A DNA stretch of 64,000 bases. Source: Bacillota bacterium. Lineage in GTDB: Bacteria > Bacillota > Clostridia > Christensenellales > Aristaeellaceae. The notes beneath the pieces were generated by a model. It searched no databases and was not told the origin of the DNA. It saw only the letters and a program-made list of their open reading frames with translations. Positions 23,710-39,937 of this stretch are shown here, piece after piece; within the stretch, counting starts at the first letter, position 1, and every line of letters starts with the position of its first letter. The position numbers were made by a program, and so were the translations under genes. Where the stretch lies: positions 2,496 through 66,495 of the forward strand of contig JAEWRJ010000015.1 of the NCBI GenBank assembly GCA_023460055.1. The letters are read 5' to 3'.

Positions 23710-23822
23710 TTTTTTATGTAAAATTTCCGAACGTCATGTTTCTGTTGCATGAAAACACACGTTATCTTCGTTATACTAAGTGAACAGTGGAATCACTGTA
23801 GCTTCCTCATGGAGATGCCAAG

Positions 23823-24854
23823 ATGAAAAAGTTCGTTCTATGTTGTATTTTGCTCACGTCGCTGCTCTTGATACTGGGGCTGTATCTGGCAGGCCATGTA
23901 TGGAAACGTGAAAATCACGCTGCCCGTTCTGACTCCCCTGAACAGATCATTGACAACAGAACCCCGGAAATGCTTTTGCCTAAAGCATATTTTAGAGATG
24001 CTTCAGGAACGGTCCTGTTTATTAACAGCATAAATATCGAAGAGGGGGCGCTTATATCCGCTGCACCAAGTTCAGATGGCGAACCGCTTGGAAGACTGCC
24101 AAACGGAGAACAATGTTCTTTGATTTCCTTGATCGATGATTGGGCATATGTTAGAGCATCTATTAATGGTAAAAAGCAAGATGTCTATGCCATGACATCC
24201 GATTTAACGCCTTTAGATGGATCATATGGACTATATCCCGCCGGAGGCGGGGCCTATCTCGAGAATAATGCTTATCACTTCGGTAATATGCTTCCCCCTG
24301 CTCTATCCCAAACATTTACCGGAACCGAGCTGGAGGACTATCACCCTATGTTAGGGATGATCATTGCTGATGGAAGTAAAAATGCCTTTGTTATTCTCAG
24401 CAAAGACGGGCATAATGTGCTTTGTGTTTTAGAGCGGATTGAAGAAAGATGGGTCATCAAAGAAATAGGGCGTCAACTGCTATATCAGGGCGACCTGCTG
24501 CCGGAGTATTTTTACTATTCAAAGTATAATGATCAAGTCGTCTATTACTATCCTATAGATGGTAATAATCTTCAGGAGAGCTTTGGGTTACAATGTGATG
24601 CTGACGGACAATACTACTTGTCTCATTACTACTATGGCCCGGGAGATATTACCTTGAGTACCAACAAGGAAAACAACTATGCGGCAGATGTTCAAGGCGA
24701 TTTACTGATCATTTCAGATAATACAGGGAAGATGCTCAGCACTTATGGTATCAAGACGACAGTATCAATCGATAAAAATGATTTCAAAGTCTCAAATCTC
24801 GACCTGCAATGTACTCTGAACCTCTTTTTCCAATACAGGGAAAGGCCTTTCTAG
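23823..24854 (+). CDS. Membrane-anchored or secreted protein with an SH3b-like module
   Basis: N-terminal hydrophobic segment MKKFVLCCILLTSLLLILGLYLAG. SH3b-like LISLIDDWAYVRASINGKKQDVYAMTSDL. Confidence 0.7.
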   Translation: MKKFVLCCILLTSLLLILGLYLAGHVWKRENHAARSDSPEQIIDNRTPEMLLPKAYFRDASGTVLFINSINIEEGALISAAPSSDGEPLGRLPNGEQCSLISLIDDWAYVRASINGKKQDVYAMTSDLTPLDGSYGLYPAGGGAYLENNAYHFGNMLPPALSQTFTGTELEDYHPMLGMIIADGSKNAFVILSKDGHNVLCVLERIEERWVIKEIGRQLLYQGDLLPEYFYYSKYNDQVVYYYPIDGNNLQESFGLQCDADGQYYLSHYYYGPGDITLSTNKENNYAADVQGDLLIISDNTGKMLSTYGIKTTVSIDKNDFKVSNLDLQCTLNLFFQYRERPF

Positions 24855-24869
24855 TAGACAAACAGAAAA

Positions 24870-24896
24870 GACCTCCCTGCGTAATGCAGAGAGGTC
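24870..24896. terminator. Hairpin shared by a convergent gene pair
   Basis: GACCTCcCTGC-gtaat-GCAGaGAGGTC with an A-run upstream. Confidence 0.55.
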
Positions 24897-24939
24897 CCTT
24901 CAGCAAGTGTTTTCTTAGGTATAACTACATGAATTATTC

Positions 24940-26190
24940 TTAGCCGTTGCCATAATAAGGTTTACCAAAGCCGACAATATCTGAGTTAAACCTCTTACCG
25001 GGTACGTCCGGTCCAAGAGGGGGTTGGATAAAGACCTTATTGTTTCCAATCGCTTGGCTTCCCTTGGCTGATGCATTGCCTTCAATAGAAGTAATTGTCG
25101 TTCCGTTGCTACTTACATCGATTACAACACCTACATGTCGGCTTATTTTGGTGGTATCGTCTATTCTGAAGTACACATAGTCACCAATTTCTGCTCTGTA
25201 ATTCATCTCTGCGTTGGTGAGTTCCGCTTGGCTCATAAATTCTTTCAAATCAGAAAATCCATAGGCTTTTACCTTATCTTCCGCATGTACAAAATAGAAT
25301 GAATCACTTTGCAAGAAGAAACTGATACCATTCCTAACATTTGACTCCTGAGGTATATTTAAATCACCATCGAACGGCCATAAGCAATGGCATGTAATCC
25401 AATCAGCAAACCAGTGACACCAATCACCATTATTATCCAATTCCTTATTATAGTACTTTGGATTGCCGTTATGTTGGGCATTCACTTCTTGATTTGCGAC
25501 ATTTACTAGAATATAGCGTTCCATGTCTTCATTAGCAGTAGGGGGCGATAGTGTTGTCCCTAAAATGTAGGCATCTTTGTTTTTCCAACGGCATTTGAAC
25601 CAGCCATTTCCAGCATCTTTTATGACTGCACGTCTACCTTTAGGATAGTAGCCGACAATGCTGCCCGAAGTTGACGGCGTATCTCTAAGCCGCACATCAT
25701 TCTGTATTACATTTGCATATAGCCACCCGTCATACGGGCTTTCATACTCAGATTCATCCACCATAAGTGACACATTATCAAACAACGCCACGCCTTCGGC
25801 TGATCCAGCAATCAATCTAATCTCAACATTTTGCATGCCATAACCCGTAGCAGCAAATGTGTAAGATAATTCAGTGAATGATGATGTCAGTTGGGGAATA
25901 AAGGATGGGCTATACTTCCATGCGCCGTTTACATATAACATTATCCACACGTCAACGTCACCAATGATTCTTTTTACATTAAATTTTAATGTATGAGAAC
26001 CAGGCATTACACTCGCGTGAGTATATATATGGCTCTGTCCTTTTTCAGCAGGAACAGTCAGCTTTACGCATTTGCCATTGTCTATGCCTCCGGTGGCTTG
26101 ATGTTCAACTTTGTTCCCCGAATACCAGCCGTAAATGCTCCACTCGTCCATTCCACTTTCAAATCCGGGATTCTTTATTGCATTAACCAT
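24940..26190 (-). CDS. Leaderless cell-wall hydrolase: CBM4_9-like, SH3b and CHAP-like (NlpC/P60 superfamily) domains
   Basis: ATG at 26190 with SD AAGGAGAA (MVNAIKNPGFESG...); the ORF track extends to 26292. NPGFESG..W and FDNVSL are CBM-like. SH3b shows RLRDTPSTSGSIVGYYPKG..WFKCRW. CHAP-like Cys in GDWCHWFADW and His in SRHVGVVIDV...IEGN. No signal peptide. Confidence 0.75.
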   Translation of the reverse strand: MVNAIKNPGFESGMDEWSIYGWYSGNKVEHQATGGIDNGKCVKLTVPAEKGQSHIYTHASVMPGSHTLKFNVKRIIGDVDVWIMLYVNGAWKYSPSFIPQLTSSFTELSYTFAATGYGMQNVEIRLIAGSAEGVALFDNVSLMVDESEYESPYDGWLYANVIQNDVRLRDTPSTSGSIVGYYPKGRRAVIKDAGNGWFKCRWKNKDAYILGTTLSPPTANEDMERYILVNVANQEVNAQHNGNPKYYNKELDNNGDWCHWFADWITCHCLWPFDGDLNIPQESNVRNGISFFLQSDSFYFVHAEDKVKAYGFSDLKEFMSQAELTNAEMNYRAEIGDYVYFRIDDTTKISRHVGVVIDVSSNGTTITSIEGNASAKGSQAIGNNKVFIQPPLGPDVPGKRFNSDIVGFGKPYYGNG

Positions 26191-26247
26191 TTTTCTTCTC
26201 CTTCTTCTTCGCTTTAAGTTTCTGGCCAGAACTCTTAAGCTGCTTTG

Positions 26248-26282
26248 AGTATAGTATTCTCTCCACTCCAATAGCAGTGACA
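26248..26282 (-). promoter_or_regulatory. CTTCACT-N22-TAnnnT motif (variant TGTCACT ... TATACT) upstream of hydrolase gene 24940-26190
   Basis: The minus strand reads TGTCACT (26282-26276), 22 nt, then TATACT (26253-26248). Confidence 0.35.
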
Positions 26283-26795
26283 AAACAGACAAGAAAGGTG
26301 CAGGAAATAATCAGTCTTCAATAACGACTATGATCCGGTGCCTATCTATGTAAGCTTAGGTGAATGGAAAGAAGAAAAAGTGCTTTGTCCCAGAGCTGTA
26401 GAACAGAGCCTATATTGGCTTTGCTGTATACAACGTTTCCAAAATATGCACTTCACCGTCAATTGGTAAGTATCGTATAAAAGCTGTCGTTTCAGGTGGC
26501 GGGGAGACAGCGACAGCTTACTCTGCATCCATAAAGAAGTAGTGCTTTCCGGAAATTTGCTGTCGAGTAGACAGGCGGCCTTACGGCCCCTGCCCCTCAC
26601 AGAACCGTACTTGCCCTATTAAGGAATACGGTTTTTCAAACAGTCTTTGGGATCCAAATGTCAACATAAATACGGGGTGGCGTCACATATTCTTTTCAAA
26701 TCTGTCTGAACAGTTCAATGTATGAGTTTCGCCCAGTGTTTGTGCAGATTACGGGCTGATCCATCTGTCAAATGTTTCCTATTTCGTGCTGGTTT

Positions 26796-26830
26796 CTTCA
26801 CTACTTACTGAGATGCGTGTCTATTAGTAT
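26796..26830 (+). promoter_or_regulatory. CTTCACT-N22-TAnnnT motif upstream of hydrolase gene 26895-28835
   Basis: CTTCACT (26796-26802), 22 nt, then TAGTAT (26825-26830). Confidence 0.45.
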
Positions 26831-26894
26831 TGCGGTAGAGAAGAACAGAAAATAAAGTCTGCACATTCTCATAATTTATAGGAGGAAACATAAA

Positions 26895-28835
26895 ATGGCA
26901 GAACTACTAAAAAATGGCAATTTTGAAGGATCTAGCCCAATCTGGCAACTTAATGGGTCGGCAGCAATTGTAAGTGATGGACATGCTATGAATAATAGTC
27001 AGAAGTGTCTTCGCTTTATAAATCCAGCGCAAGGAGGAGAGCATTATGCGTCGCAGCCAATAAAGATACAGCCTGGAACGTATGGTCATGTAATTCTATG
27101 GGCAAAAAGAACAGGGAATATGGACCTCTGGGCATCAATTAAGATTGTAAAATCAGGCATGACAGAGTATCTTAAGAGCCCGATTATGTCTGATTATGTC
27201 AATGATACATACAGAACTATGCTCTGGAATTTCGATATCCCAGCCTCAGCAAGCCCTGATGCTGAGGTCAGAATATATGCTAAAGGAATGTCTGGGGCTG
27301 CAGGAACAACATGGGTAGACTATGTGTCGTGTAACGGATCGGAGTATGTACCACTCCCCGATCCCGGCCCGCATCCCTCAGGTATTGACCACCTCGAAAA
27401 TCCCAGTTTTGAGTCTGGCACGTCTCCTTGGACCTTTAGACAGCCGTCTCAGGTTATAACGGATAGCGTCAATGCGAAGAAAGGCAGCAAAGTCCTGAAG
27501 TTTCCTTATAAAGAAATCGCTGGTATGCAAGGCGCGTATCAAACGGTTAGGCTTGTACCCGGCAAAACATATATTTTTTCATTCTACGCAAAAAGAAGCG
27601 GTCGAATGGATATCTGGGCAGCATACTCATATTATGATGCCAGCGGTGCTTACCAAGTTGTGCATGGGCCTTCGCTGTTGAATGCTATACCTGATACCAA
27701 CACCTACAGGAGACAGGAGTACCGATTTACTGTGCCTGAAAGCGCTAAAGGACCATACAGCATATTCATCAATGGAGGAAACACGCCAGGTGATTCTGGT
27801 GTCGTTGGTTATGTTGATGATGCGATTCTTGTGAATACTGATGGCTCTGCACCTCCGTATAAGGAAAAGAATGGCTGGGTAGTTAACGTCAACAGTGATG
27901 GACTAAAAATCAGACATACAGCTAATGGAAGTGAAAAATTCAAGCTTTCCTATGGGGAAAAGGTTCGTATTGTAAATGAGACTCAAGTTGGCGCTGTTAC
28001 CTGGTACAACATTATTGATAGGAGAGATCGGGACGGCTGGGCAGATGGTAGCTATATTTCATTCACCGATCCGTTTCTTGCGCCTGGATTAACATATGTA
28101 CGTGTAATACGTGATAATGCTGAGGTCCTGACTTCTTCTGGCGCTATCATTGATGGCAATCATATTCTCCCCTTACACCGTATCCTGATCGCAGAGCCGT
28201 ACAATAGTGATCTCTACAAAATCAGGTATAGAGGATTAGTTCAATACATAAGGCGGTCGGATTGTGAGGTAATGCAAACTTACCTTTCAAACTGGCATGT
28301 GCCGAGAATAGCGGTGATTGCAGGTCCGGAAGAAGGAAGATCAAATAGCGTGTACTTTGATGGATATGCGGGTGTTACTTATCAATGGTGTCATCGTTTC
28401 GTGGATTGGCTTTACCTGAGCGCATATGTAAATAGGGACCTTATTCCAAACACTGCCGGAACAGCAGAAGGGATCAGATTCTTTATTGAGGAGTATGGTA
28501 GTTCAGGCGGTATAGGGAAAACATTCTGGTTTGTGAGTCAGTCTCTCAAAAACAACTTTTTAAACGAGTACACAACTATCAATGTCCCTCATGGATTAAC
28601 TGATGAAGAGAGAAACTTTATTCCACAGGAGGGCGATTATATATACTTCAAGTTTAACAATGGTGTGAATGAGGTGGTAAGCCACGTGGGATATGTGACG
28701 GGTGTTACCTCGACTCATGTTAATACGATTCAGGGAAATGTCAACAACATGGTCGTTAGAAGGGGATATAGCCTGGGAGACGTTACTATTTTGGGATATG
28801 GACGTCCTAAGGTAGGATATCAAGATCTGGGTTGA
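26895..28835 (+). CDS. Leaderless cell-wall hydrolase: two CBM4_9-like modules, SH3b modules and a C-terminal CHAP-like domain
   Basis: MAELLKNGNFEGS..W and ENPSFESGTSPW start two CBM-like modules. SH3b shows GLKIRHTANGSE...WYNII and YVRVIRDNAEV. CHAP-like YQWCHRFVDW ... SHVGYVTGV...IQGN. SD AGGAGGAA upstream. No signal peptide. Confidence 0.75.
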   Translation: MAELLKNGNFEGSSPIWQLNGSAAIVSDGHAMNNSQKCLRFINPAQGGEHYASQPIKIQPGTYGHVILWAKRTGNMDLWASIKIVKSGMTEYLKSPIMSDYVNDTYRTMLWNFDIPASASPDAEVRIYAKGMSGAAGTTWVDYVSCNGSEYVPLPDPGPHPSGIDHLENPSFESGTSPWTFRQPSQVITDSVNAKKGSKVLKFPYKEIAGMQGAYQTVRLVPGKTYIFSFYAKRSGRMDIWAAYSYYDASGAYQVVHGPSLLNAIPDTNTYRRQEYRFTVPESAKGPYSIFINGGNTPGDSGVVGYVDDAILVNTDGSAPPYKEKNGWVVNVNSDGLKIRHTANGSEKFKLSYGEKVRIVNETQVGAVTWYNIIDRRDRDGWADGSYISFTDPFLAPGLTYVRVIRDNAEVLTSSGAIIDGNHILPLHRILIAEPYNSDLYKIRYRGLVQYIRRSDCEVMQTYLSNWHVPRIAVIAGPEEGRSNSVYFDGYAGVTYQWCHRFVDWLYLSAYVNRDLIPNTAGTAEGIRFFIEEYGSSGGIGKTFWFVSQSLKNNFLNEYTTINVPHGLTDEERNFIPQEGDYIYFKFNNGVNEVVSHVGYVTGVTSTHVNTIQGNVNNMVVRRGYSLGDVTILGYGRPKVGYQDLG

Positions 28836-28852
28836 TTATAACAGGTAGATAA

Positions 28853-28893
28853 ACAGGCCCTGATGGTAATAGCTTGTTACCATCAGGGCCTGT
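28853..28893. terminator. Perfect 17-bp hairpin shared by a convergent pair
   Basis: ACAGGCCCTGATGGTAA-tagcttg-TTACCATCAGGGCCTGT. Confidence 0.7.
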
Positions 28894-28895
28894 AA

Positions 28896-29657
28896 TCATT
28901 CAATATACATCTGCATGATGAAGCAAACGAAACCGTTTGGGTACCTGATTTCATACCATCCATCCAGAACAGCAATACACTCTACATACGGATTTTTCAT
29001 GGTCTTAGGCGAATCACTTCCTTCAGTAGGAGAGGAAAGAGATGGATATGAATGAAGGAAGTACGTCCATAAACTTTGATCGAATTTTATTTTACCGATT
29101 GTGGGGAAATTGAAATAATTGCCATACATATCATTTAGCAGAGTATCCTTCTTCATAATAAAGCCATTTACATTTCCGAGTTCAATATAGAACCAATTAT
29201 CAATTTCACCATAAATGCCAAGAATTGTACCATCGAGATAGGTAGCAATGACCTCAGCCTTTTCATCAGCTACATCATATACTTTGATCTCACCGGATTT
29301 ATCGAAGGCTGAAACAGTCGCAATGGGGGTCTCTTGTTTAACATCTAAGTACTTCACTTGATCCATATTTACATCGTCCCGACGCATATAACCGCTAATA
29401 TCGCTTAGTTTTGTGTCAAAGTATTCGGAGCTTCGGAAAATAATGTAAACCCAATCATCTAACTCATCATAGATACCGAAAGTAAACCCGTTAAACAAGT
29501 TGAGCGTGATGTCAGATTTAACGTTTGGGGCCTTATAAAGAGGGGCTGTCGACGAGTTCTCGACCTCGACCGATCCCAAAGACATTCCAGCCGATAGAAC
29601 ATCCGGCGCAATAGATAGAATCAAACATACTGATAAGAGGAAAGATAATGTCTTCAT
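28896..29657 (-). CDS. Secreted protein made of three SH3b-like repeats
   Basis: ATG at 29657 with SD AAGGAGAA. Signal peptide MKTLSFLLSVCLILSIAPDVLSA. Repeats end in WVYIIF.., WFYIEL.., WYEIRY... Confidence 0.7.
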   Translation of the reverse strand: MKTLSFLLSVCLILSIAPDVLSAGMSLGSVEVENSSTAPLYKAPNVKSDITLNLFNGFTFGIYDELDDWVYIIFRSSEYFDTKLSDISGYMRRDDVNMDQVKYLDVKQETPIATVSAFDKSGEIKVYDVADEKAEVIATYLDGTILGIYGEIDNWFYIELGNVNGFIMKKDTLLNDMYGNYFNFPTIGKIKFDQSLWTYFLHSYPSLSSPTEGSDSPKTMKNPYVECIAVLDGWYEIRYPNGFVCFIMQMYIE

Positions 29658-29700
29658 GTCGCTTCTCCTTAAATAATCAATGGTCATCGTTCTGCATATA

Positions 29701-29730
29701 TATAACGGGGCAACATGCTGATTTGTTGCA
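29701..29730 (-). promoter_or_regulatory. ECF-type promoter variant (TGCAAC-N17-CGTTATA) directly upstream of gene 28896-29657
   Basis: The minus strand reads TGCAAC (29730-29725), 17 nt, then CGTTATA (29707-29701). The ATG is about 45 nt downstream. Confidence 0.4.
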
Positions 29731-29848
29731 TTATTTGTTTATTTTGGTGAAAGAGCCATAACACCTAATGAAAATATAATCCTTTATCTACCATTTGGGG
29801 ACAGAAATCTGTATAACGATGGCTTATTATACCGTGCTCCGACTATTT

Positions 29849-29883
29849 CTTCACTCCCTCTCTGATTACGAATCGCTTAGCTT
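29849..29883 (+). promoter_or_regulatory. CTTCACT-N22-TAnnnT motif upstream of the pseudogene fragment and hydrolase gene 30167-31081
   Basis: CTTCACT (29849-29855), 22 nt, then TAGCTT (29878-29883). Confidence 0.45.
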
Positions 29884-29940
29884 GTAGAAGCAGAGACGCT
29901 CGGCTGGCAATGGAGATTAGACTGGAATAGGAGTAACGAG

Positions 29941-30050
29941 ATGACAGATCCAATTATCTCAGGGGTAGGCCCAAATAGTCAAGCGACTCTGCAGAATATA
30001 CATTTAGGATAGAAGTACTTTCAAAAAGACTTGAACAGCACCTTCGCATT
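29941..30050 (+). pseudogene. Truncated, nonsense-interrupted 5' copy of the PG_binding-hydrolase gene family
   Basis: About 80 percent nucleotide identity by eye to 30167-30270. It translates MTDPIISGVGPNSQATLQNIHLG*KYFQKD against MANPNISGSGPNSQATLQNIHLGQKYFQKD. TAG at 30010-30012 replaces CAA, and similarity fades after about 110 nt. Confidence 0.7.
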
Positions 30051-30166
30051 GTTGCGCCTTTTTGAGCAGCTATTACACTTCTATCACGTTCTGAGCTCAT
30101 TTATTCTTTAGTTAGCTTAAATGTGTGGCCAGCATTATAAGCAAACAATAATAAAGGTGAAATGAA

Positions 30167-31081
30167 ATGGCAAATCCAAACATCTCAGGGTCAGGACCTA
30201 ATAGTCAAGCGACTCTGCAGAACATACATCTGGGTCAAAAGTACTTTCAGAAAGATACTGCGACAGCGCATTCGCAAGTACAACTGATGCAAGATCGGCT
30301 TACTAACCTTGGCTATAATACCAAGGGAGCTGATGGCAAATTTGGCGATAACACTCTGGCAGCGGTTAAGGCATTTCAAAGCGCAAATGGTTTAACTGCT
30401 GATGGCAAGTTTGGCAGATTGAGCCTTGAAAAGCTGGAGTATTGGCTTGGTGGTCATCTTGACCCTGGGCAAGGAGGGTGTGTAGGCGGAGGTACTCCGC
30501 CTACAACAGGCAATGATACTTTTGACAGCTCTGTGCCTGAGGATAAGTATAAGGTGCTCACGTCAAGTTGCGAAAGAGTCAATAACTACTCCACGGCACT
30601 CTCTCGTATAAACAATTATATTGGTTCAAGCGGCGTTATTGTGACGCAGTATTTTCAAGAACTTGATCGAATTGCACGAGATACGAGCACTACTTACAAT
30701 ACACATGATTGTGCAGGATTTCTTTATGCTGCCAGAGGTAAAGTTGGTTATAAAGGCTCCACCTCGAATCTTTGCCTTGATAGTATTTACATGGGTTATA
30801 TTGCTGACCTTGGTGGATATAACAACCTGATTCCTGGTATGGAGATACATCAGGGGTGCCGTCATAGAACTCAGTCTTCTAAGTATTACTCCAGTCATGT
30901 CGGCGTGTACTTTGGCAAATATGACTTTGGTGACGGTAAAGGTCTCCAGCATGCTGTGTATCAATCTGGCCCCAGCTACAGTGTGTTGAAACGAAAATAC
31001 AATAAACCGGGCGGCCCTGAACTGACCAGCATGAACTCAAACTGGAACTATTGGTCATGGAATAGATACGTCACTCGTTAA
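30167..31081 (+). CDS. Leaderless PG_binding_1 plus NlpC/P60-like peptidase
   Basis: PG_binding_1: LMQDRLTNLGYNTKGADGKFGDNTLAAVKAFQSANGLTADGKFG. NlpC/P60-like HDCAGFLYAARG ... SSHVGVYFG ... HAVYQS. No signal peptide. Confidence 0.75.
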   Translation: MANPNISGSGPNSQATLQNIHLGQKYFQKDTATAHSQVQLMQDRLTNLGYNTKGADGKFGDNTLAAVKAFQSANGLTADGKFGRLSLEKLEYWLGGHLDPGQGGCVGGGTPPTTGNDTFDSSVPEDKYKVLTSSCERVNNYSTALSRINNYIGSSGVIVTQYFQELDRIARDTSTTYNTHDCAGFLYAARGKVGYKGSTSNLCLDSIYMGYIADLGGYNNLIPGMEIHQGCRHRTQSSKYYSSHVGVYFGKYDFGDGKGLQHAVYQSGPSYSVLKRKYNKPGGPELTSMNSNWNYWSWNRYVTR

Positions 31082-31094
31082 GATACCCCCTAGA

Positions 31095-31120
31095 CCACCT
31101 GCGCTTTTGCAGGTGGTTTT
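31095..31120 (+). terminator. Terminator between a convergent pair
   Basis: CCACCTGC-gctttt-GCAGGTGG followed by TTTT. Confidence 0.7.
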
Positions 31121-31135
31121 CCAATACATTTTGTA

Positions 31136-32326
31136 CTATTTTATCAGTGTGTATTTGTGCATCAAAATAGCCGCATTAGTCACCGTCTCATCTTGAGATG
31201 AAAGAATAATGAACTCATCCTTATTATTGGTTGCTACATTCGGATATCGAACTGACTTAGCTAACTCTTCAACCAACTGCATATCACCATTTTTTGTAAT
31301 ATGGTACAACTTAGGAGGATCGGTACGAGCGTAAGAATCAGTAAGGAAAACAATACCATTGTTGAGACTGATAATAGGCTTGACAATATGTTCTGAGGTG
31401 ATTGGCAACTTTGATTCATGCTTTGTCATTAAATCCAAAGAATCAATTACTGAAATGAAAATAGACTTAGTAGTGTCATAATCATTACTGAAAACAAAAA
31501 TACCATCACTACTTTCGATTGCATTTTGGAAAGTACCAGGGAGAGGAATAAGGTATGTAGCAGTCAAATCACAACGATTATCAATCAATGCAAGCATGAT
31601 TCCATCGAAAGCCATATCTCCGAAGAATAATGTGCAACCATTTTCACTTTCAATAACATTATAAAGAGTATATTCATTTTCAGTAATGTGATGAACTTTT
31701 GACTCGCCACTAAAGGTGTTTATTACTTCAAACTTCGTGGAGCGCGGTATATCTGGTTCCTTGAAAGCCTTAATGGTAAACGAAGCAGTGTAATACGAAG
31801 TACTCACATCTGCTTCATCTCGCGTTTTGATTGGACCTTGATGTAAGACTTTTCCATCATAATCGATAATGGTTTCTGTAAAGTAAGTTAATGAGGAATC
31901 ATCATACACAACCAAACGCAGCCCTTCTTTTTCAATGCTTACATCATATGACCGAAGCATATTGTCAGCTGCTTCAGTGAATAAAAAGAACTCCCACAAC
32001 AACTCGCCTCCTGCATTGATACATACCATATACTCATTAGCAAAGTTATCGTTAATCCGAATGATTGAAAATACAATGTTGCCATCTGGGAGGATGATCG
32101 GTTCTTCCATTCTGCCAAACCCATATGCGTTCACCGGCAGTTGCTTTTCTACCGAGAGCATGATTGATGAACCAATGTTAAGGATTGCATCAGAGTGATC
32201 AATGTTATTTGCTTCTGCCTGTACAGCGTATGTGCGGCCGAAAATACCACATAATATGATAAATGAAAGGACTAAACAAGCGATACTGCGAAGAATATTG
32301 GTTGAATCTGAAAGCTGTGTTATCAT
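31136..32326 (-). CDS. Secreted or anchored protein of unknown fold
   Basis: 396 aa. N-terminal hydrophobic segment IACLVLSFIILCGIFG followed by AVQA-E. SD AGGAGGAAAG upstream. No other motif recognised. Confidence 0.7.
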   Translation of the reverse strand: MITQLSDSTNILRSIACLVLSFIILCGIFGRTYAVQAEANNIDHSDAILNIGSSIMLSVEKQLPVNAYGFGRMEEPIILPDGNIVFSIIRINDNFANEYMVCINAGGELLWEFFLFTEAADNMLRSYDVSIEKEGLRLVVYDDSSLTYFTETIIDYDGKVLHQGPIKTRDEADVSTSYYTASFTIKAFKEPDIPRSTKFEVINTFSGESKVHHITENEYTLYNVIESENGCTLFFGDMAFDGIMLALIDNRCDLTATYLIPLPGTFQNAIESSDGIFVFSNDYDTTKSIFISVIDSLDLMTKHESKLPITSEHIVKPIISLNNGIVFLTDSYARTDPPKLYHITKNGDMQLVEELAKSVRYPNVATNNKDEFIILSSQDETVTNAAILMHKYTLIK

Positions 32327-32390
32327 GACTTTCCTCCTGCATTACGCTTTACAGCCATTAATTAGCTCAGCGTGAATCAAGGTTGACCCC

Positions 32391-32419
32391 ATTATAGTGT
32401 GAAGCAGGGAATGAAGCAA
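32391..32419 (-). promoter_or_regulatory. Sigma-A-type promoter for gene 31136-32326
   Basis: The minus strand reads TTGCTT (32419-32414), 17 nt, then TATAAT (32396-32391). Confidence 0.5.
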
Positions 32420-32584
32420 CATTTCGGTGAGGTGGAATATCGCTCTAACCAAGTTAAATAACAAGAAGTATCTTTCCTTTAAAAACCTATTTTCACCCAA
32501 AGATGATAAGCAATGGTGTAACGAAGATAAGGTGTGTTTTCAGGCGATAGAAACTTGACGCTCAGAAATTTTACGTTCAAAAAA

Positions 32585-32613
32585 TGAGACAAAACCAGCT
32601 TTATATCGTTATA
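32585..32613 (+). promoter_or_regulatory. ECF-type promoter (TGAGAC-N16-CGTTATA) pointing at 32779-32955 and 33077-34141
   Basis: TGAGAC (32585-32590), 16 nt, then CGTTATA (32607-32613). Confidence 0.45.
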
Positions 32614-32778
32614 TATATAGATGACATAGTCATTGACGCCGAAACAGGAAGTTAACAGATATTGCCCATACAAAAGATGGGTACATGGCATGAATCGCAC
32701 CTGAACGCGCGTTATATGATTGTGCAGGCTGATGACACGCTAAAAGAGGCGTAGTCGGTGGAAGGAGATAGTAGTTGT

Positions 32779-32955
32779 ATGTCTGAAAGATTTATCACCA
32801 GAAAACAGAAGCATAAGAGATTTGAGGAAAGGAAAGGAAAGTGTGCTGCTGCTTTGGTTATTGCTGCAGCTTTGCTTTTGACAATAGCCCAGTCCGCTCA
32901 CAGCGAGTCATTGAATAAAAGGCCGTTGCATGATTACGGATGCTCAAGGATTTGA
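32779..32955 (+). CDS. Possible small secreted-peptide precursor (58 aa)
   Basis: ATG with SD GGAAGGAGA. Basic N-terminus (KQKHKRFEERKGK), hydrophobic core AAALVIAAALLLTIA, SAHS-E cleavage-like site and a 16-17-aa tail ESLNKRPLHDYGCSRI. Confidence 0.3.
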   Translation: MSERFITRKQKHKRFEERKGKCAAALVIAAALLLTIAQSAHSESLNKRPLHDYGCSRI

Positions 32956-33076
32956 TATGAGAAGCAATTCTTGCACCCAAAGTACATTTGATGGGTCATG
33001 GTGTTAACTCTGGTATCGATGGCTAAAGGGATAGACGCATTCTCGGCATTACGCTTAAATCTAACGGAGGCTATAC

Positions 33077-34141
33077 ATGAAGAAATTGACTCAAACAATC
33101 GTGCTCCTTTTCCTCGTCAGCGTTGTGATGACCGCCTCTGCTAATCAGTTTAACGTTCACGGGGGCCTTTATGACGCCCTTGTTGAAAAGCTTAAAATAT
33201 ATGACGGCTATATGGCTGATGATAAATCACAAACATCTCCGGACAAAAACACTAACATTGCTATTCTGTTCGACTATTCCGGAAGTGATCATGCCCAGCT
33301 TTTAATTGGTAAGCAAGTTGGCAAGAAGTGGGAAATACACCATTCGTCAACAAAAGCCGTTTATCAAAAAGGGGTTAAGCCCTCAGTGGAGCTAATTAGC
33401 AGCGTAAACGGTGGTTTCATTTTAAAGTACCAAGATGAACAGTATGAGTTCCTTCCAAACGATCAAGATCAGTATATCCTGACTACTGCCGATATTGCCG
33501 CGGTTGAGTACAATCTGGACAAGACAGCTGGGATTTATCATGTTAAGAGCGCAGACCAGGCAATAGAGTGGCGCGCAGCACCGATTACTCTCGATGATTT
33601 TAACATTACACTGTTCCCAAAAAGCGTCAATGAAGCGCAGGCATACAATGCAATTTATGGCAAGCTCTCATCTTTGTCATTCTCAGCAAGAAACAGAGAA
33701 ATTCTTATGCAACATGCTGGCAGTAAAACGACCGCCGTCTATTCAGCGCCAAGTGAGCAATCCTATCGAGCGTCAAAGGGAAAAGCTGCTGTTAATTTAG
33801 AAAGTAGCTTATGGCTTCTTGGAACTGAGGGGGACTGGGTTCTGATTAGATACGCCATCAACAATAAGTCTGAGCGCATTGGTTATGTCCAATCCAGGCG
33901 ATTCGCTTATTTGCCCCCTGATATCAGCATTCTTGATGACACAGAGTTTGTAAACCTCATAGGGTCCAATGATTGTTACATGACACTTGACCCGATCAAT
34001 TCCCAATCAAAAGAAGGTATCGTATCAAAGGGGGACACCATAAAGGCTTATGGATTATATGATCCCTTCTATGTGTATGTCGAAAGTTCAATATCCGGCA
34101 AATCCGCGCGAGGCTTTGTGCCAATCAATGCCTTACAGTAG
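33077..34141 (+). CDS. Secreted protein with two C-terminal SH3b-like modules
   Basis: Signal peptide MKKLTQTIVLLFLVSVVMTASA-N. SH3b-like ...GDWVLIRYAINNKSERIGYVQS and ...FYVYVESSISGKSARGFVPINAL. SD ACGGAGG upstream. Confidence 0.75.
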   Translation: MKKLTQTIVLLFLVSVVMTASANQFNVHGGLYDALVEKLKIYDGYMADDKSQTSPDKNTNIAILFDYSGSDHAQLLIGKQVGKKWEIHHSSTKAVYQKGVKPSVELISSVNGGFILKYQDEQYEFLPNDQDQYILTTADIAAVEYNLDKTAGIYHVKSADQAIEWRAAPITLDDFNITLFPKSVNEAQAYNAIYGKLSSLSFSARNREILMQHAGSKTTAVYSAPSEQSYRASKGKAAVNLESSLWLLGTEGDWVLIRYAINNKSERIGYVQSRRFAYLPPDISILDDTEFVNLIGSNDCYMTLDPINSQSKEGIVSKGDTIKAYGLYDPFYVYVESSISGKSARGFVPINALQ

Positions 34142-34367
34142 GGATGAGCAGTGATGAAACCAATGGGATAGCTTTTGCAATTCTTGTTTACGCTTGGTTG
34201 AGCATAGTTTATGAGAACGGTAACAATGCTATTATTCATTTTAGATAACAAACATCCTTTGCTTTTGATAGCGGTTTTAAGGCTTTCTCTATATAGCAAA
34301 AGAGGTCTCTTTCCGCTAATGTCTTTTTGCACCAGATTTTCTATTGGTTTTTGCACACTAAAGCGGA

Positions 34368-34408
34368 CAAAACTGCCACAGGTTCTGTAAGAACCTGTGG
34401 CAGTTTTT
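34368..34408. terminator. Bidirectional terminator (14-bp stem) between a convergent pair
   Basis: AAAACTGCCACAGGTTC-tgtaa-GAACCTGTGGCAGTTTTT. Confidence 0.75.
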
Positions 34409-34413
34409 CTTTA

Positions 34414-35244
34414 TTAGCTAAATGCTACTTCAAATAGTTTTTGTTTTGTCTGGTTACCCGCCACACCATCTGCTAGCAAACCATGTGATTGCTGAAAGGC
34501 TTTCACTGCTCCTTCGGTTCCTGTGCCATACTTTCCGTCAGCACCAGCTGAGCCACAACTGTAACCTTCCCCAATGAGGTCTGTTTGCAGGTTTTGCACA
34601 TATGCATTGTAAGTATTTGATATCCTTAAAATGGGTGTTCCATAACGTTCCTGCCATGTTGTTGAAGGCCCAGGATTAGTAGATCCACCTTCACCCAATA
34701 GAATCGTACCATCAAATTTGCAGAGAATCGTATCGGAGAGGGTGTAATTCCATACTTCGTCATTTTTTGCCGCGCTATGCGCATATACGTAAATCGTTGT
34801 TCCAACAACACGGCTAACCATACCAACATGTTTTGCGTCACGGCTTGCCTTGTCGCCGGTCCCGCTTAGAGCGAAGACAAGGTCACCACGCTGCAATTGT
34901 CCGACTTGGCTATTAGAAAGGAATGTATAGGGCATACGAGGATACCCACTATTGTTGTACTTAATGAACAAGCGTAAACTATTAGCTCCTGCCCAGCTAC
35001 CACTCTTGCTAGTCAATGCTGCACCAGGCGTATTGTAGTACCATGAATCGTAAGGATTTACATCCGTGGTATATTTCATGGGCATTCCGCCACCTTCAAA
35101 CATGCACTGAGATACAAAGTTAGCACAGTCAGAAGTGTTGGGGTTGTTGTCATTGTCATAATCGACATAACGAGGGTTATGTCCTTTGCACCATTGTGCA
35201 GCATACGTTATCGCTCCATCACGATTGTAGGATTTCTGAGACAT
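34414..35244 (-). CDS. Leaderless Amidase_6-like (putative amidase, NlpC/P60 clan) plus C-terminal PG_binding_1 protein
   Basis: ATG at 35244 with SD AAAGGAGGA (MSQKSYNRDG...); the ORF track extends to 35310. SDCANFVSQCMFEGG ... KHVGMV. C-terminal GADGKYGTGTEGAVKAFQQSHGLLADG. No signal peptide. Confidence 0.75.
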   Translation of the reverse strand: MSQKSYNRDGAITYAAQWCKGHNPRYVDYDNDNNPNTSDCANFVSQCMFEGGGMPMKYTTDVNPYDSWYYNTPGAALTSKSGSWAGANSLRLFIKYNNSGYPRMPYTFLSNSQVGQLQRGDLVFALSGTGDKASRDAKHVGMVSRVVGTTIYVYAHSAAKNDEVWNYTLSDTILCKFDGTILLGEGGSTNPGPSTTWQERYGTPILRISNTYNAYVQNLQTDLIGEGYSCGSAGADGKYGTGTEGAVKAFQQSHGLLADGVAGNQTKQKLFEVAFS

Positions 35245-35316
35245 ATAATGTCCTCCTTTGAATAGTTTTGGTATGTGCGTTTTCCTTGCTGTCCAGCTTT
35301 GGCTTCGCACACCTAA

Positions 35317-35351
35317 AGACTACTCTCGATAAAACAATTAAGGGAGTGAAG
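35317..35351 (-). promoter_or_regulatory. CTTCACT-N22-TAnnnT motif upstream of hydrolase gene 34414-35244
   Basis: The minus strand reads CTTCACT (35351-35345), 22 nt, then TAGTCT (35322-35317). Confidence 0.45.
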
Positions 35352-35452
35352 TAATTATCATATATTGCGAAAGATATACATGCCCACTTCACATATATCA
35401 ATAGACGTAGGCGTCAAGCATTAGTAATAAATTACGAAAGCATTATTTGATA

Positions 35453-35482
35453 TGCAAGAAAGACGTATTTTCGCTCGTTATA
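35453..35482 (+). promoter_or_regulatory. ECF-type promoter variant (TGCAAG-N17-CGTTATA) pointing at gene 35635-36762
   Basis: TGCAAG (35453-35458), 17 nt, then CGTTATA (35476-35482). Confidence 0.35.
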
Positions 35483-35634
35483 TGTTGAAGGGTATTTTAG
35501 GAAAGGAGTACAATGGGGATGTGCAAGCATAGAAGCTTGTTTACTTGAGTGTTTATCGGTCATTATGAACCAGATAAAGCTCAATTGCATGTAGGGGAAA
35601 ATTCATTAACTTATATGGTAAGGGAGCGTCGAAG

Positions 35635-36762
35635 ATGAAGAAGTTGTTATTAGTAGTGACTATAGTATCAATGCTTATGAGCACTGCAACATCAGTTGCA
35701 TACTTGTCTGATGGAACATTCGGGATAGAAAACATTCCAAATGATATAGTCGAAATTATTGATGGAAGTCGGTGGAGAAAGTGGGAAGTAACGGGGTGGG
35801 TTAATCCTAGTGGGTTAAGGAAAAATAGCGCATGTGCCTTTGCAGTCGTAAAAAGAGGCAGGGAAAATGTCCTATTGGCATTTGGATGGGATAATGGTTG
35901 GAAATATAAATGGTTCAACCCGGCTGCTCTTCCTCAAGTATATGAACCTATAATGTTAGTTGACACAAGCATTGATTTACAGCGAGAAAAAGGATTCAAT
36001 ATTGGATTTATATCCTTTTACAGCGTAAATGGAGAATCGGCTGAAAAATCATGTATATGGGGACTGGAAAGCGACGGCGCATGGAGGCTGTATCATTTAA
36101 CCAGCATTGAGCCGTTTATGATGTTTGATACATCCAAAGATAATGCAATTCGTTTATATGATGTAGGATGGGTTGATGGCGAAGAAACTGATGTTTGGGT
36201 ATATGGAAGCTATCAGAAGAATTTGCGGTTTTTTAGCCTTCGAGAGTTTCCAATGTCAGTAAAGCAAGCTCAGGAGGCTTTGAGTAATCCTCCTTCTATT
36301 CCAACAGGAAACCTAACAGCGCAGAAGATTCAATTTTCTGGTGGCTTGAAGTATAAGGTATATCAGGGACCGGGTGAAGAGTATGGACAAGCGGGTAAAG
36401 GTAAGGCTGTTGTCAGCACGAACGATTGGATTCAGGTCTTTGGAGAAGAAAATGGATGGATTTTTATCCAGTATGATATAACAAGCGATCATATGCGTAT
36501 GGGATGGATAGAGGCGAGTGCATTACCTAAAAAGGCTTCTGTAAACGAGCTTTTTTACTCACCAATAAGTGCAATAACGACTCATAACACTAACCTGACC
36601 GATGATCCTTTGTTCTCGCAATCAGGTATTTCTGTGCTTCCTATATCCACTCAAGTTATTTGGTTGGCGACAATGGGCCAGTGGGCCTATGTGGAGGTTA
36701 CTGAATCACAGCCAATTCGAGGATTTGTGCATATCAATTCTCTATCTATTTATATCAAATAA
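35635..36762 (+). CDS. Secreted protein with two C-terminal SH3b-like modules; same architecture as 33077-34141
   Basis: Signal peptide MKKLLLVVTIVSMLMSTATSVA-Y. SH3b-like ...NGWIFIQYDITSDHMRMGWIEASAL and ...WAYVEVTESQPIRGFVHINSL. Confidence 0.75.
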   Translation: MKKLLLVVTIVSMLMSTATSVAYLSDGTFGIENIPNDIVEIIDGSRWRKWEVTGWVNPSGLRKNSACAFAVVKRGRENVLLAFGWDNGWKYKWFNPAALPQVYEPIMLVDTSIDLQREKGFNIGFISFYSVNGESAEKSCIWGLESDGAWRLYHLTSIEPFMMFDTSKDNAIRLYDVGWVDGEETDVWVYGSYQKNLRFFSLREFPMSVKQAQEALSNPPSIPTGNLTAQKIQFSGGLKYKVYQGPGEEYGQAGKGKAVVSTNDWIQVFGEENGWIFIQYDITSDHMRMGWIEASALPKKASVNELFYSPISAITTHNTNLTDDPLFSQSGISVLPISTQVIWLATMGQWAYVEVTESQPIRGFVHINSLSIYIK

Positions 36763-36777
36763 CCTTGATGTGAAGTT

Positions 36778-36814
36778 GGGGCCCCATCCGTTGGAGAAAC
36801 GGGTGGGGCCCTTT
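36778..36814. terminator. Long hairpin shared by a convergent pair
   Basis: GGGCCCCAtCCGTT-ggaga-AACGGgTGGGGCCC followed by TTT. Confidence 0.7.
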
Positions 36815-36861
36815 ACTATTTATACTAGTATGGCCAAATGACTCTATCAATAATACCCTGA

Positions 36862-37773
36862 TTAAATATAATAACCACCATTACCAGCTGTAGGGATATA
36901 AACTTTCTTTTCAGAACCATCACCGACAAGATTTGACTTAACTCGATAAACCCTACAATTTGCAGCAGTGAGCGCTTTAAAAGCATTGTTTTGATTATCG
37001 GTATTACCGCAGACCCTACACCCAAACTGACCGCCCACTGTAACATTACTACTCACTGCAAGCGTCACATGGGTATAAGGAGTCGGCGTTGCCGTAGCCT
37101 TGTAGGTATAGACCAAGTCACCAGGCTGTACCTGATTATACTCCACCTGCTGCACAAAGCCTTTGCTAATAAGCCGATCGAGCCCACTTTTTGTAAGTTG
37201 CCACTTACTATCAGACCATCCTGAAGGAGCGCCGGGAAGTGGATAGTACCAGCCGTTAAACATGGGAGCACCACCGGCGACAAGGCATTGATGTACAAAG
37301 TCAGCACAGTCATTATCACCGTTGATGGTTGGGAATGAGCTATTACGCTTCGGACAAGCAACGTTGCCAGAGTTGTCAGAGTGATTAAGTGCGTAGTTGA
37401 CTGCATTATTGGCACTAAATGAATATGTTTGTGTGCCCCCGCCGCCGGGAGGGTTGCCGCCACCGCAAGAGGGGTCTGAGGGGTCGAGATGGCGTCCCAT
37501 CATGTTTTCAAGAGCTTCAAGCGATTTCTTGCCGAAGTAACCGTCCGCGGTCAAGCCTCGGGAAGACTGGAAGTTGCGTACGGCGGAAGCTGTATTATTA
37601 CCATATATACCGTCAGTACCTTGTGTGCTGAAACCGCGATTTGATAATTCCTGCTGCATCAGTTTAATTTGAGAATGAGTTGTTTTGAGGTCAACTTCCC
37701 AAGAACGAGACCCGGCATGGATTTCACTCAGGGTAGTTCTACTATTATTGCCGCTACCAGTTATAGTTGCCAT
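36862..37773 (-). CDS. Leaderless PG_binding_1 plus Amidase_6-like protein; N-terminus paralogous to 30167-31081
   Basis: MATITGSGNNSRTTLSEIHAG... PG_binding_1: LMQQELSNRGFSTQGTDGIYGNNTASAVRNFQSSRGLTADG. Amidase_6-like NDCADFVHQCLVAGG ... YTHVTLAVS. SD AAAGGAGAA upstream. No signal peptide. Confidence 0.75.
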   Translation of the reverse strand: MATITGSGNNSRTTLSEIHAGSRSWEVDLKTTHSQIKLMQQELSNRGFSTQGTDGIYGNNTASAVRNFQSSRGLTADGYFGKKSLEALENMMGRHLDPSDPSCGGGNPPGGGGTQTYSFSANNAVNYALNHSDNSGNVACPKRNSSFPTINGDNDCADFVHQCLVAGGAPMFNGWYYPLPGAPSGWSDSKWQLTKSGLDRLISKGFVQQVEYNQVQPGDLVYTYKATATPTPYTHVTLAVSSNVTVGGQFGCRVCGNTDNQNNAFKALTAANCRVYRVKSNLVGDGSEKKVYIPTAGNGGYYI

Positions 37774-37831: not shown

Positions 37832-37866
37832 AGAGTAAGGCAATGATGCAGTTGATGGGAGTGAAG
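37832..37866 (-). promoter_or_regulatory. CTTCACT-N22-TAnnnT motif upstream of hydrolase gene 36862-37773
   Basis: The minus strand reads CTTCACT (37866-37860), 22 nt, then TACTCT (37837-37832). Confidence 0.45.
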
Positions 37867-38071
37867 AACAGCGAAGAAATAAGTAATTTATATGAAAGAA
37901 ATATGCATTGGGGACAAGTAAAATATACAGTTACGAATACATAGGCGCTAACGGCTCTTTCAATGTACCTAACGATTATATGTACTATTAATCAGGCATT
38001 ATGCTTCTATAAAACAGGCATTATGAGTCGTTCCTGTGCATCGAGTAGAACGATAGAATGTGCTGGGGTGA

Positions 38072-38425: not shown

Positions 38426-38458
38426 CAGAGTACCTTGACTAATAAATGGAGGATATGA

Positions 38459-39925: not shown

Positions 39926-39937
39926 GAGGAGGTTTAT

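Follow-up and report, generated by a model that had tools for sequence, protein, structure and literature searches.

What would an integrative conjugative element (ICE) gain by carrying five peptidoglycan hydrolases in a row, none of them with a signal for export and each facing the gene of a protein that has one? The question is raised by a 64-kb stretch of DNA from a Bacillota bacterium (hereafter, the window), which is the right-hand part of such an element. An initial annotation, made from the sequence alone, had described ten consecutive genes at 23823-37773 as five tail-to-tail pairs. The ten open reading frames (ORFs) are indeed present at exactly the coordinates given there, in five convergent pairs, and all have plausible ribosome-binding sites. 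In every pair, a peptidoglycan hydrolase without a leader faces a protein whose N-terminus is of the Sec type. We call the leaderless enzymes H1 to H5 and their partners A1 to A5, numbered by pair along the window. The reading that we favour, tentatively, is that the array encodes holin-released bacteriolysins with exported immunity-like partners, carried by the ICE as cargo. The ten genes are listed below, together with a sixth leaderless wall-binding protein (W6), which we recovered where the initial annotation had placed it.

Pair 1, 23823-24854 (+), A1: exported or membrane-anchored protein of 343 aa, hydrophobic segment of score 3.07, weak SH3_3 match (E = 0.034)
Pair 1, 24940-26190 (-), H1: CBM-like N-terminal domain, SH3b, CHAP-like domain
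Pair 2, 26895-28835 (+), H2: 646 aa, two CBM_4_9-like domains, SH3b, CHAP-like domain
Pair 2, 28896-29657 (-), A2: signal peptide and SH3b repeats (SH3_4 6e-7, SH3_3 3e-6), N-terminal hydrophobicity 2.41
Pair 3, 30167-31081 (+), H3: PG_binding_1 (4e-16) and a C-terminal Cys/His domain
Pair 3, 31136-32326 (-), A3: 396 aa, signal peptide, no SH3b and no Pfam match, N-terminal hydrophobicity 2.99
Pair 4, 33077-34141 (+), A4: signal peptide, C-terminal half homologous to that of A5, with its tandem SH3b domains
Pair 4, 34414-35244 (-), H4: Amidase_6 (2e-27) and PG_binding_1 (6e-16)
Pair 5, 35635-36762 (+), A5: signal peptide, all-beta N-terminal domain and two SH3b domains
Pair 5, 36862-37773 (-), H5: PG_binding_1 (1e-14) and Amidase_6 (4e-10)
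Unpaired, 44145-44585 (+), W6: leaderless SH3_3 and PG_binding_1 protein lacking a catalytic domain, encoded at the end of the conserved cassette

The stop codons of pairs 1 to 5 are separated by 85, 60, 54, 272, and 99 nt, respectively, and every gap contains one hairpin, as previously noted, with stems of 8-18 bp instead of the 8-17 bp first estimated:

24865-24901: A1/H1 gap, 16 bp
28853-28893: H2/A2 gap, about 16 bp, read from the sequence
31094-31117: H3/A3 gap, 8-9 bp, read from the sequence
34369-34407: A4/H4 gap, 18 bp
36778-36812: A5/H5 gap, 15 bp

These hairpins are ordinary bidirectional terminators and require no special explanation. The A4/H4 gap (34142-34413, 272 nt) is unusually long and is overlapped by a 95-aa reverse ORF at 34069-34356.

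Leaderless enzymes and exported partners

All five enzymes had been assigned a catalytic module of the NlpC/P60 superfamily in the initial annotation. The assignment is firm for H4 and H5, whose Amidase_6 matches (96.5 and 40.6 bits) pass the cut-off of 23.2. It is less so for H1 and H2, whose CHAP matches stay below the threshold (22.9-24.5 bits versus a cut-off of 26), and for the C-terminal domain of H3, which is unmatched in Pfam even at E < 5. H1 and H2 are homologous to each other. Searched as isolated domains, their CHAP-like regions match the family at 4e-5 and 8e-5, respectively. The SH3_3 match of H1 (7e-5) and that of H2 are also under the gathering score, and the CBM_4_9 match of H2 reaches 5e-17. 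An exhaustive HMMER search showed that the C-terminal domain of H3 belongs to a small family with 46 relatives. The top match of their profile in the PDB is the NlpC/P60 enzyme Spr/MepS, at a non-significant E-value (0.53), with the catalytic-type residues aligned: C77 and H139, invariant in the family, fall on the Cys and His of Spr. An NlpC/P60-like nature of this domain is thus a plausible assignment, based on motifs. The corresponding residues are C39 and H138 in H4, invariant in its family alignment. The H5 family conserves a Cys (in DCADFVHQC) and a His (in THVT). In H1 and H2 we read the motifs WCHWF...RHVG and WCHRF...SHVG from the sequences. The AlphaFold2 model of H4, with a predicted local distance difference test (pLDDT) score of 89, is endolysin-like in architecture.

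The absence of N-terminal signals in the hydrolases, a central claim of the initial annotation, is well supported. No hydrophobic 15-mer scores above 1.3 on the Kyte-Doolittle scale anywhere in H1-H5. An N-terminal hydrophobic segment is found in none of the 33 relatives of H4 and none of the 46 relatives of the H3 domain, versus 27 of the 28 relatives of A5. Since the lack of signal is kept family-wide, the leaderless state of the hydrolases is not an artefact of the choice of start codons. We also considered whether the N-terminal stretch conserved in H3 and H5 (…TLxxIHxG…) could be a leader of the double-glycine type, and dropped the idea; this stretch runs straight into PG_binding_1. No gene for a C39 peptidase transporter was seen among the window proteins scanned. 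The non-catalytic W6 bears the same type of upstream motif as the hydrolase genes (see below), and could be a decoy, an adaptor, or a remnant.

On the other side of the pairs, all five partners have an N-terminal hydrophobic segment with Kyte-Doolittle scores of 2.3-3.1, followed in A2-A5 by an Ala-X-Ala-like site. SH3b repeats had been proposed for four of them. They are above threshold in A2, apparent from the model in A5, and deduced by homology in A4, which matches the profile of the C-terminal half of A5 at 4e-22; the match of A1 is weak and A3 has none. The AlphaFold2 model of A5 (pLDDT 88) has a C-terminal half that matches the tandem SH3b domains of Trichomonas NlpC proteins in a Foldseek search of the PDB, and an all-beta N-terminal domain for which the same search returned no counterpart. 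A5 has 702 homologues. The profile of its N-terminal domain gives marginal matches to A1 (1e-3, in an 11-sequence database) and to A4 (0.08), for which we do not claim homology.

Conservation of the pairing in other contexts

The layout of the window is by itself weak evidence for pairing, since five convergent pairs would all hold one H and one A by chance with p = 32/252 = 0.13; the comparative data are stronger. We inspected eight further contexts that hold close relatives of H4 or H5 (52-66% identity), in line with the survey of homologues suggested by the initial annotation. A gene encoding a protein with a signal peptide is adjacent in all eight, and it is convergent in seven. The relatives of the catalytic domain of H5 found in metagenomes (57-66% identity) have a convergent A5-type gene in four cases out of four. 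Three of these four carry three SH3_3 domains where H5 has PG_binding_1. The A5-type partner is kept despite this swap, which shows that the partner follows the catalytic domain and not the wall-binding module. The relatives of H4 (52-60% identity, four contexts) also have a signal-peptide neighbour in all cases, three convergent and one co-directional. The partners of these four enzymes are homologous to one another (1e-22, 7e-17, and 2e-6).

Other catalytic domains occur in the same arrangement. In L104, a leaderless protein with three SH3_3 domains and a Phage_lysozyme2 domain is convergent with an SH3_3 protein bearing a signal. L105 has two such pairs, one between a SpoIID and PG_binding_1 protein and a 147-aa signal protein, the other between an H4-like gene and the gene of a 285-aa signal protein. 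Arrays that pair leaderless wall hydrolases with signal-peptide proteins are thus a recurrent design in the mobile DNA of gut Clostridia, with partner families that are interchangeable to a degree.

These observations bear on one alternative, namely that there is no functional coupling and that the array is a cargo island of unrelated wall genes, oriented and paired by chance or by the assembly of the cassette. The H and A composition taken alone is compatible with it, as are the divergent neighbours, which combine without rule (H-H, A-H, A-A, and H-A). A4 falls outside the partner family of the H4 relatives, and the sigma-promoter remnants and the duplicated gene start described below show that recombination took part in the assembly. 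However, an uncoupled island does not account for the signal-peptide neighbour in all eight H4 and H5 contexts, for the way in which the A5 type tracks its catalytic domain across wall-binding swaps, or for the further pairs of L104 and L105. Given this conservation and the upstream motif, the pattern is clearly non-random, and we regard the absence of any coupling as very improbable.

The relatives of H3 point to a link with toxins of another kind. Two of the 46, P0219 and P0226, represent C-terminal pieces of RHS/YD-shell proteins. In both, the H3-like domain comes after the end of the RHS core (…RYYDP..GRF… and the DPxG-like motif), and TEN_YD-shell is on record. In P0226, the domain is an orphan C-terminal toxin module, preceded by a first RHS toxin domain with its small membrane protein, an arrangement typical of polymorphic toxins. 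We searched for an immunity gene downstream of this RHS fragment (L114, P0226). The next gene encodes a protein with a signal peptide, unrelated to A3, that resembles a haem- or iron-binding protein, and for this reason we did not count it as evidence. H3 itself has no YD repeats or RHS shell in Pfam searches, and is a free-standing fusion with PG_binding_1.

A tblastn search with H5 and H2 against 50,697 GenBank phage records returned only the PG_binding_1 module or two weak fragments, and scans of IMG/VR with H4 and H2 gave no match. PHROGs matches came mostly from the PG_binding_1 module, with weak matches in the catalytic region for H1, H2, and H4 only. A direct origin from a phage endolysin was rejected, since the catalytic domains have no close relatives in GenBank phages or IMG/VR, even though the architecture is endolysin-like. 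Among plasmids, H1 has no relatives and H4 has only distant Amidase_6 or PG_binding_1 matches.

Upstream motif, sigma factors, and holins

We searched the window for the 11-mer TTCTTCACTCC, allowing at most one mismatch. There are six matches, five of which are upstream of the starts of leaderless genes and in the correct orientation. Four of them (H2, H4, H5, and W6) are followed by an intact start codon after 94-109 nt. The copies are the following, with a more degenerate one for H1 and the gene start associated with H3:

26274-26285 (-): degenerate motif TTTTGTCACTGC, 95 nt before the start of H1, weaker than the other copies
26794-26804 (+): TTCTTCACTAC, 101 nt upstream of H2
29847-29857 (+): TTCTTCACTCC, exact, 95 nt before a truncated H3/H5-type start; H3 follows about 320 nt away
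29942-30013 (+): truncated H3/H5-type 5' end, 23 codons from ATG to stop, ribosome-binding site kept
35343-35353 (-): TACTTCACTCC, 109 nt upstream of H4
37858-37868 (-): TTCTTCACTCC, exact, 95 nt upstream of H5
44051-44061 (+): TCCTTCACTCC, 94 nt upstream of W6

H3 lacks a motif of its own. The truncated start results from a tandem duplication of 226 nt directly upstream of the gene (29929-30029 and 30155-30255), and the motif sits before the upstream duplicate. At every copy, a T/A-rich hexamer follows CACTCC after 17-20 nt, which makes the element promoter-like. Among the partner genes, A3 has a two-mismatch copy of the motif at -92, and the best match of each of the other four has at least 4 mismatches. 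Sites resembling sigma-70 promoters are not enriched over shuffled sequences, and we make no claim on the promoters of the partner genes.

The window encodes three ECF-type (extracytoplasmic function) sigma factors. The third is the sigma-like gene at 44892. The other two belong to modules located between H5 and W6, the first of which is an operon of four genes with a helix-turn-helix (HTH) protein:

38072-40336 (+): regulatory operon of four genes
38072-38425 (+): HTH repressor-like gene
38459-39022 (+): ECF-type sigma factor
39077-39925 (+): DUF4367 membrane protein, probably an anti-sigma factor
39938-40336 (+): small protein with a signal peptide
43433-43945 (-): second ECF sigma factor, in the module 41369-43945
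42400-43440 (-): membrane protein of the second sigma module
41369-42406 (-): exported PepSY-like protein of the second sigma module

Just upstream of the HTH gene at 38072 are two tandem 19-mers, CTATTAATCAGGCATTATG and CTATAAAACAGGCATTATG, 22 nt apart (37985-38025), which are probably operator sites. The promoter and first codons of the second sigma gene (43433-43945) are present in three copies that are 80-86% identical (23679-23776, 32516-32655, and 43923-44002) and contain an ECF-like TGAGAC-N16-CGTTAT. Those at 23.7 and 32.5 kb are mutually inverted and bracket the A1-H1-H2-A2-H3-A3 block; these copies may be recombination scars or a substrate for inversion. The 750-nt spacer between A3 and A4 contains, next to one such remnant, a 65-aa ORF (32758-32955) with a basic N-terminus and one hydrophobic segment, apparently the remains of a signal-peptide or anti-sigma gene.

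The initial annotation had reported the absence of any holin. This holds for the window, where no holin came up in tblastn searches using the BhlA and holin_4_1 proteins of related loci or in a transmembrane scan of small ORFs. It does not hold for the sister copies of the cassette. L001, L002, L004, and L008 match the segment 26849-44908 at 99% identity. Past 44908, after W6, the sister sequences differ from the window and encode holin genes of the BhlA family. L001 has two of them: one is preceded at 79 nt by an exact copy of TTCTTCACTCC, and another exact copy lies 102 nt upstream of the small operon that includes the second. The motif is thus common to leaderless genes and BhlA genes, and both look like members of one regulon. 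The window contains a form of the element that lacks the holin module and may be either crippled or reliant on a holin from another locus. Near-identical copies of the cassette are found in over 50 metagenome samples.

Holins also accompany the more distant relatives, beside which the claim of absence again fails. BhlA genes are close to H4-like genes in L107 and L109, and L101 and L104 have holin genes of the TcdE type (Phage_holin_4_1). In L109, a two-mismatch copy of the motif lies 104 nt upstream of the H4-like gene, and this gene is preceded by the same HTH - ECF sigma - DUF4367 module that follows H5 in the window, in a locus that also carries BhlA. L107 has co-directional genes (4151-10819) for a signal-peptide protein, an H4-like Amidase_6 enzyme, BhlA, and then an RHS/YD toxin that exceeds 1984 aa, carries CBM domains, and has no evident signal. 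It may be a locus for the export of RHS proteins assisted by a holin and a hydrolase.

Such loci suggest another role for the hydrolases: they could open the wall of the producer itself, in the manner of holin/endolysin-type (type-10-secretion-like) export or lysis, to let out another toxin or ICE-related material. The partners would then restrain or position this self-directed activity, or be unrelated surface proteins. The gene order of L107, with the H4-like gene set between a signal-peptide protein and BhlA ahead of a giant RHS/YD toxin gene, is what one would expect, as is the motif common to holin and hydrolase genes. H4 resembles endolysins by structure, and the Bcn5 and large-clostridial-toxin loci combine a holin with an accessory amidase or endolysin (PMC9527704). 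Yet five different hydrolases in a row, in a cassette with no other leaderless cargo, seem excessive for an accessory role. Moreover, every hydrolase keeps its own exported neighbour, and the H3-type domain is itself the tip of RHS toxins. We consider this explanation unlikely.

The ICE context proposed initially was borne out by the neighbouring genes:

19607-21010: relaxase
21370-23511: LPD1 protein
47034-48470: tyrosine integrase

The element also encodes a 2801-aa SNF2 protein, a sortase, a Y-family polymerase, and a SRAP protein. Its genes are ordered as relaxase, LPD1, array, two ECF sigma/membrane-protein modules, W6, a third sigma-like pair, integrase, and tRNA gene, beyond which come housekeeping genes with 62% GC. 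The tRNA gene (48641-48713), just past the integrase, is probably the attachment site of the ICE. The array has a GC content of 41% and a GC content at third codon positions (GC3) of 0.35-0.45, versus 0.50-0.57 in the core genes of the ICE, which identifies it as accessory cargo. There are no phage structural genes; with a relaxase, LPD1, and an integrase, the context is not that of a phage lysis cassette. Elsewhere in the element, an island of 36% GC (10521-16281) has a Gabija-like pair and a Ser/Thr protein kinase, identified with Pfam only, and an Rfam match to pemK RNA (49 bits, 46477-46576) lies between the sigma-like and the excisionase/integrase genes. The genes of the island are:

10521-12596: AAA_15 and OLD-TOPRIM gene, overlapping the next
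12581-14563: UvrD-type helicase
14722-16281: Ser/Thr protein kinase, after the Gabija-like pair

Proposed function, counter-evidence, and precedents

If the array encodes bacteriolysins, H1-H5 and W6 would be switched on jointly through TTCTTCACTCC and the T/A-rich hexamer 17-20 nt further on, and one of the ECF-type sigma/anti-sigma modules of the cassette would probably act on this element. In the complete form of the ICE, the BhlA holin genes would be under the same control. The holin would pass the folded signal-less enzymes across the membrane, without lysis or by lysing a subpopulation. Outside, the SH3b, PG_binding_1, or CBM modules would attach the enzymes to the peptidoglycan of nearby cells, which the Cys/His domains would then cut. 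The partners, transcribed from the opposite strand and, in four cases out of five, without the motif, would be exported by Sec and mostly held in the wall by SH3b. There they would neutralise the catalytic domain of the adjacent enzyme, such that carriers of the ICE and new transconjugants are protected. Co-regulation by a sigma factor, holin-dependent export, killing, and immunity by binding are what we infer from the gene content and layout, the absence or presence of signals, the co-inheritance of the pairs, the positions of the motif, the holins of the sister copies, and the H3-type domain in RHS toxins. The model accounts for the conserved lack of signals in the enzymes, their wall-binding modules and catalytic diversity, the co-inheritance and separate transcription of the partners, the existence of orphan partners, and the links with holins and RHS toxins. 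One case of orphan partners is L021, where an A5-like gene is beside an A2-like gene and no hydrolase is present, as known for immunity genes.

A number of observations weigh against this model. Some concern the enzymes and their release: the CHAP matches of H1 and H2 are under the Pfam threshold and the H3 domain is assigned by its motif, the window has no holin of its own, and Amidase_6 is linked to sporulation through Bacillus subtilis YhbB, a member of the sigE regulon, and through COG5877. Others concern the partners, whose large size (253-396 aa) and several domains set them apart from most immunity proteins. A4 is not detectably homologous to the partners of the H4 relatives, which a strictly co-evolving toxin/immunity pair would not predict. 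A known inhibitor fold was sought for A5, and Foldseek against the PDB matched only the SH3b pair. A3 is an ORFan, itself the only match among 5.8 billion proteins. Finally, we surveyed about 80 genomic loci of A5 relatives, in metagenome-assembled genomes (MAGs) of Oscillospiraceae and Christensenellales. Only the closest ones (54-57% identity; L020 and L023) adjoin an H5-type enzyme. About 70 of the 80, most with 34-50% identity and about 500 aa, have no adjacent hydrolase, and at least 15 are in operons of the type ECF sigma - DUF4367 - A5-like, which indicates a broader role of the A5 family in the cell envelope, linked to signalling. Such hydrolase-free operons, with a sigma factor of about 185 aa, a DUF4367 membrane protein of about 280 aa, and an A5-like protein of about 500 aa, are found in many MAGs of Clostridia (L025, L041, L045, L049, L052, L062, L071, L073, L076, L077, L084, L090, L097, and L098, with the gene at about 6001-7400 in most). 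Hence, the effector/immunity logic suggested by the initial annotation stands in part. Pairs of catalytic domain and partner are co-inherited across unrelated contexts, and the H3-type domain is used in RHS toxins, but the partner is not strictly of a cognate family, as shown by the relatives of H4 and by most relatives of A5.

Another possibility is that the enzymes remodel the wall of their own host. They could be autolysins acting on the host wall or on the spore, made in the mother cell as are YhbB and CwlC of B. subtilis, or an aid to mating, and the partners would be wall-bound regulators, either inhibitors like IseA or localisers like YpeB for SleB. This corresponds to the wall-targeting chaperones that the initial annotation gave as an alternative. 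Leaderless wall hydrolases are normal among enzymes expressed in the mother cell. The sporulation link of Amidase_6, the location on an ICE, and the presence of the broad A5 family in sigma/anti-sigma operons typical of envelope homeostasis all go in this direction. In contrast, the array is low-GC accessory cargo, part neither of the core chromosome nor of the conjugation module, and the hydrolases known from conjugation are single and membrane-anchored. The associations with holins and RHS toxins point outward. Furthermore, the one locus that we inspected among the distant plasmid matches of H4, in Pusillibacter, has a stand-alone Amidase_6 gene with no partner gene, which argues that the pairing is specific to mobile subfamilies. 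Remodelling of the host's own wall seems to us unlikely.

The array is a member of none of the families to which we compared it, and belongs neither with the type VI or type VII secretion systems (T6SS, T7SS), nor with phage lysis, FemABX-immune bacteriolysins, or the systems defined in PADLOC. Several of them nevertheless offer precedents for parts of the holin-released bacteriolysin model. In the bcn locus of Clostridium perfringens pIP404, the sigma factor UviA and the BhlA-family holin UviB are encoded with an amidase and the leaderless bacteriocin Bcn5, and holin-mediated release, non-lytic or by lysis of a subpopulation, has been proposed for Bcn5 (UviA/UviB) as well as for large clostridial toxins (TcdE/TpeE) (PMC9527704). 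The array shares with the UviAB-Bcn5 and TcdR/TcdE/TpeE loci a signal-less cargo, a mobile element, a hydrolase in the locus, and an alternative sigma factor next door. It also shares a BhlA- or TcdE-family holin, but only in sister copies and relatives. Unlike in those loci, the hydrolases are the main and multiple cargo, and each has the gene of an exported partner on the opposite strand. Also, the sigma factors of the array are of the ECF type with membrane anti-sigma partners, and we do not claim that they belong to the TcdR/UviA group.

The pairs resemble those of T6SS (Tae/Tai, Tse1/Tsi1) and T7SS (TelC/TipC) in that the gene of a wall-targeting enzyme with no Sec signal is beside that of an exported protein, which would be active in the same place as the enzyme. 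TipC, the partner of TelC in the T7SS of Streptococcus intermedius, is described as an extracytoplasmic immunity protein and provides a Gram-positive precedent (PMC6193138). The partners studied here differ in being larger and anchored by SH3b, the layout is convergent instead of co-directional, and export would probably be by a holin. We found no LXG, WXG100, PAAR, VgrG, or Hcp in the ten proteins or in neighbouring genes, and saw no T6SS or T7SS genes there. The convergent layout had been thought to be without precedent, a view that we do not share. In the operons of pore-forming colicins, the immunity gene is convergent, on the opposite strand, and has its own promoter, and the toxin and lysis genes share an inducible promoter. 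These operons differ from the array in being carried by plasmids of Gram-negatives and in encoding pore formers and inner-membrane immunity proteins, in single pairs rather than arrays.

Class III bacteriocins, or bacteriolysins, such as lysostaphin, zoocin A, and enterolysin A are, like the H proteins, modular peptidoglycan hydrolases with a wall-targeting domain, whose use against other bacteria is what we predict here. Classical bacteriolysins have a Sec signal and immunity of the FemABX wall-modification type, whereas the H proteins are signal-less and no FemAB-like domain was found in the cassette. The LysL and LysP enzymes of Lactococcus lactis prophages have been presented as phage-lysin-like proteins with a bacteriocin-like action (PMC10377672, PMC11370637); unlike them, the catalytic domains of the array have no close relatives in the phage data searched. 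The RHS/YD polymorphic toxins have the H3-type catalytic domain as a C-terminal module (P0219 and P0226) and an H4-like gene as neighbour in L107, even if H3 lacks their shell. As for inhibitors, IseA (YoeB) of B. subtilis is a secreted inhibitor of DL-endopeptidases that is not encoded beside its targets. The A partners would be like it in being exported wall-associated proteins inhibiting NlpC/P60-type enzymes, and A5 relatives occur in sigma operons of the envelope-stress type; we detected no similarity of sequence or fold between A5 and IseA. A known anti-phage defence system was also considered, and none of the ten proteins had a match in PADLOC.

The nearest known kinds are thus the holin-dependent release of bacteriocins and the effector/immunity pairs of hydrolases, beside which the array is hypothetical in function. 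Taken at its broadest, it would be an undescribed interbacterial weapon of Gram-positives: arrays of signal-less hydrolase toxins exported by holins, each with a Sec-exported, wall-anchored immunity protein encoded on the opposite strand, and with toxins and holin in a single TTCTTCACTCC regulon under a cassette-encoded ECF sigma/anti-sigma switch. We hold this to be conceivable, though doubtful. The weapon would span CHAP-like, Amidase_6, NlpC/P60-like, Phage_lysozyme2, and SpoIID catalytic modules and range over the mobile elements of gut Clostridia. Even if this reading were wrong, the locus documents that wall hydrolases without a signal are linked genetically, in a conserved manner, to exported SH3b proteins, which would need another explanation.

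The common promoter motif makes the regulon testable, and the enzymes and their inhibitors would have practical interest too, as narrow-spectrum lysins for use against Oscillospiraceae and Christensenellales. Apart from small peptide bacteriocins and the LXG toxins of T7SS, little is known of how Gram-positive gut anaerobes kill without contact. If the reading is right, these bacteria would have a widespread arsenal of ICE-borne lytic enzymes, seen in over 50 metagenome samples and accompanied by exported immunity proteins of a new type, and there would be a concrete cargo for BhlA-family holins, whose role in non-lytic export is still debated (PMC9527704). For the ICE itself, the cargo would act as a module of addiction and spread, since cells that lose the element would become prey and those that receive it would be immune.

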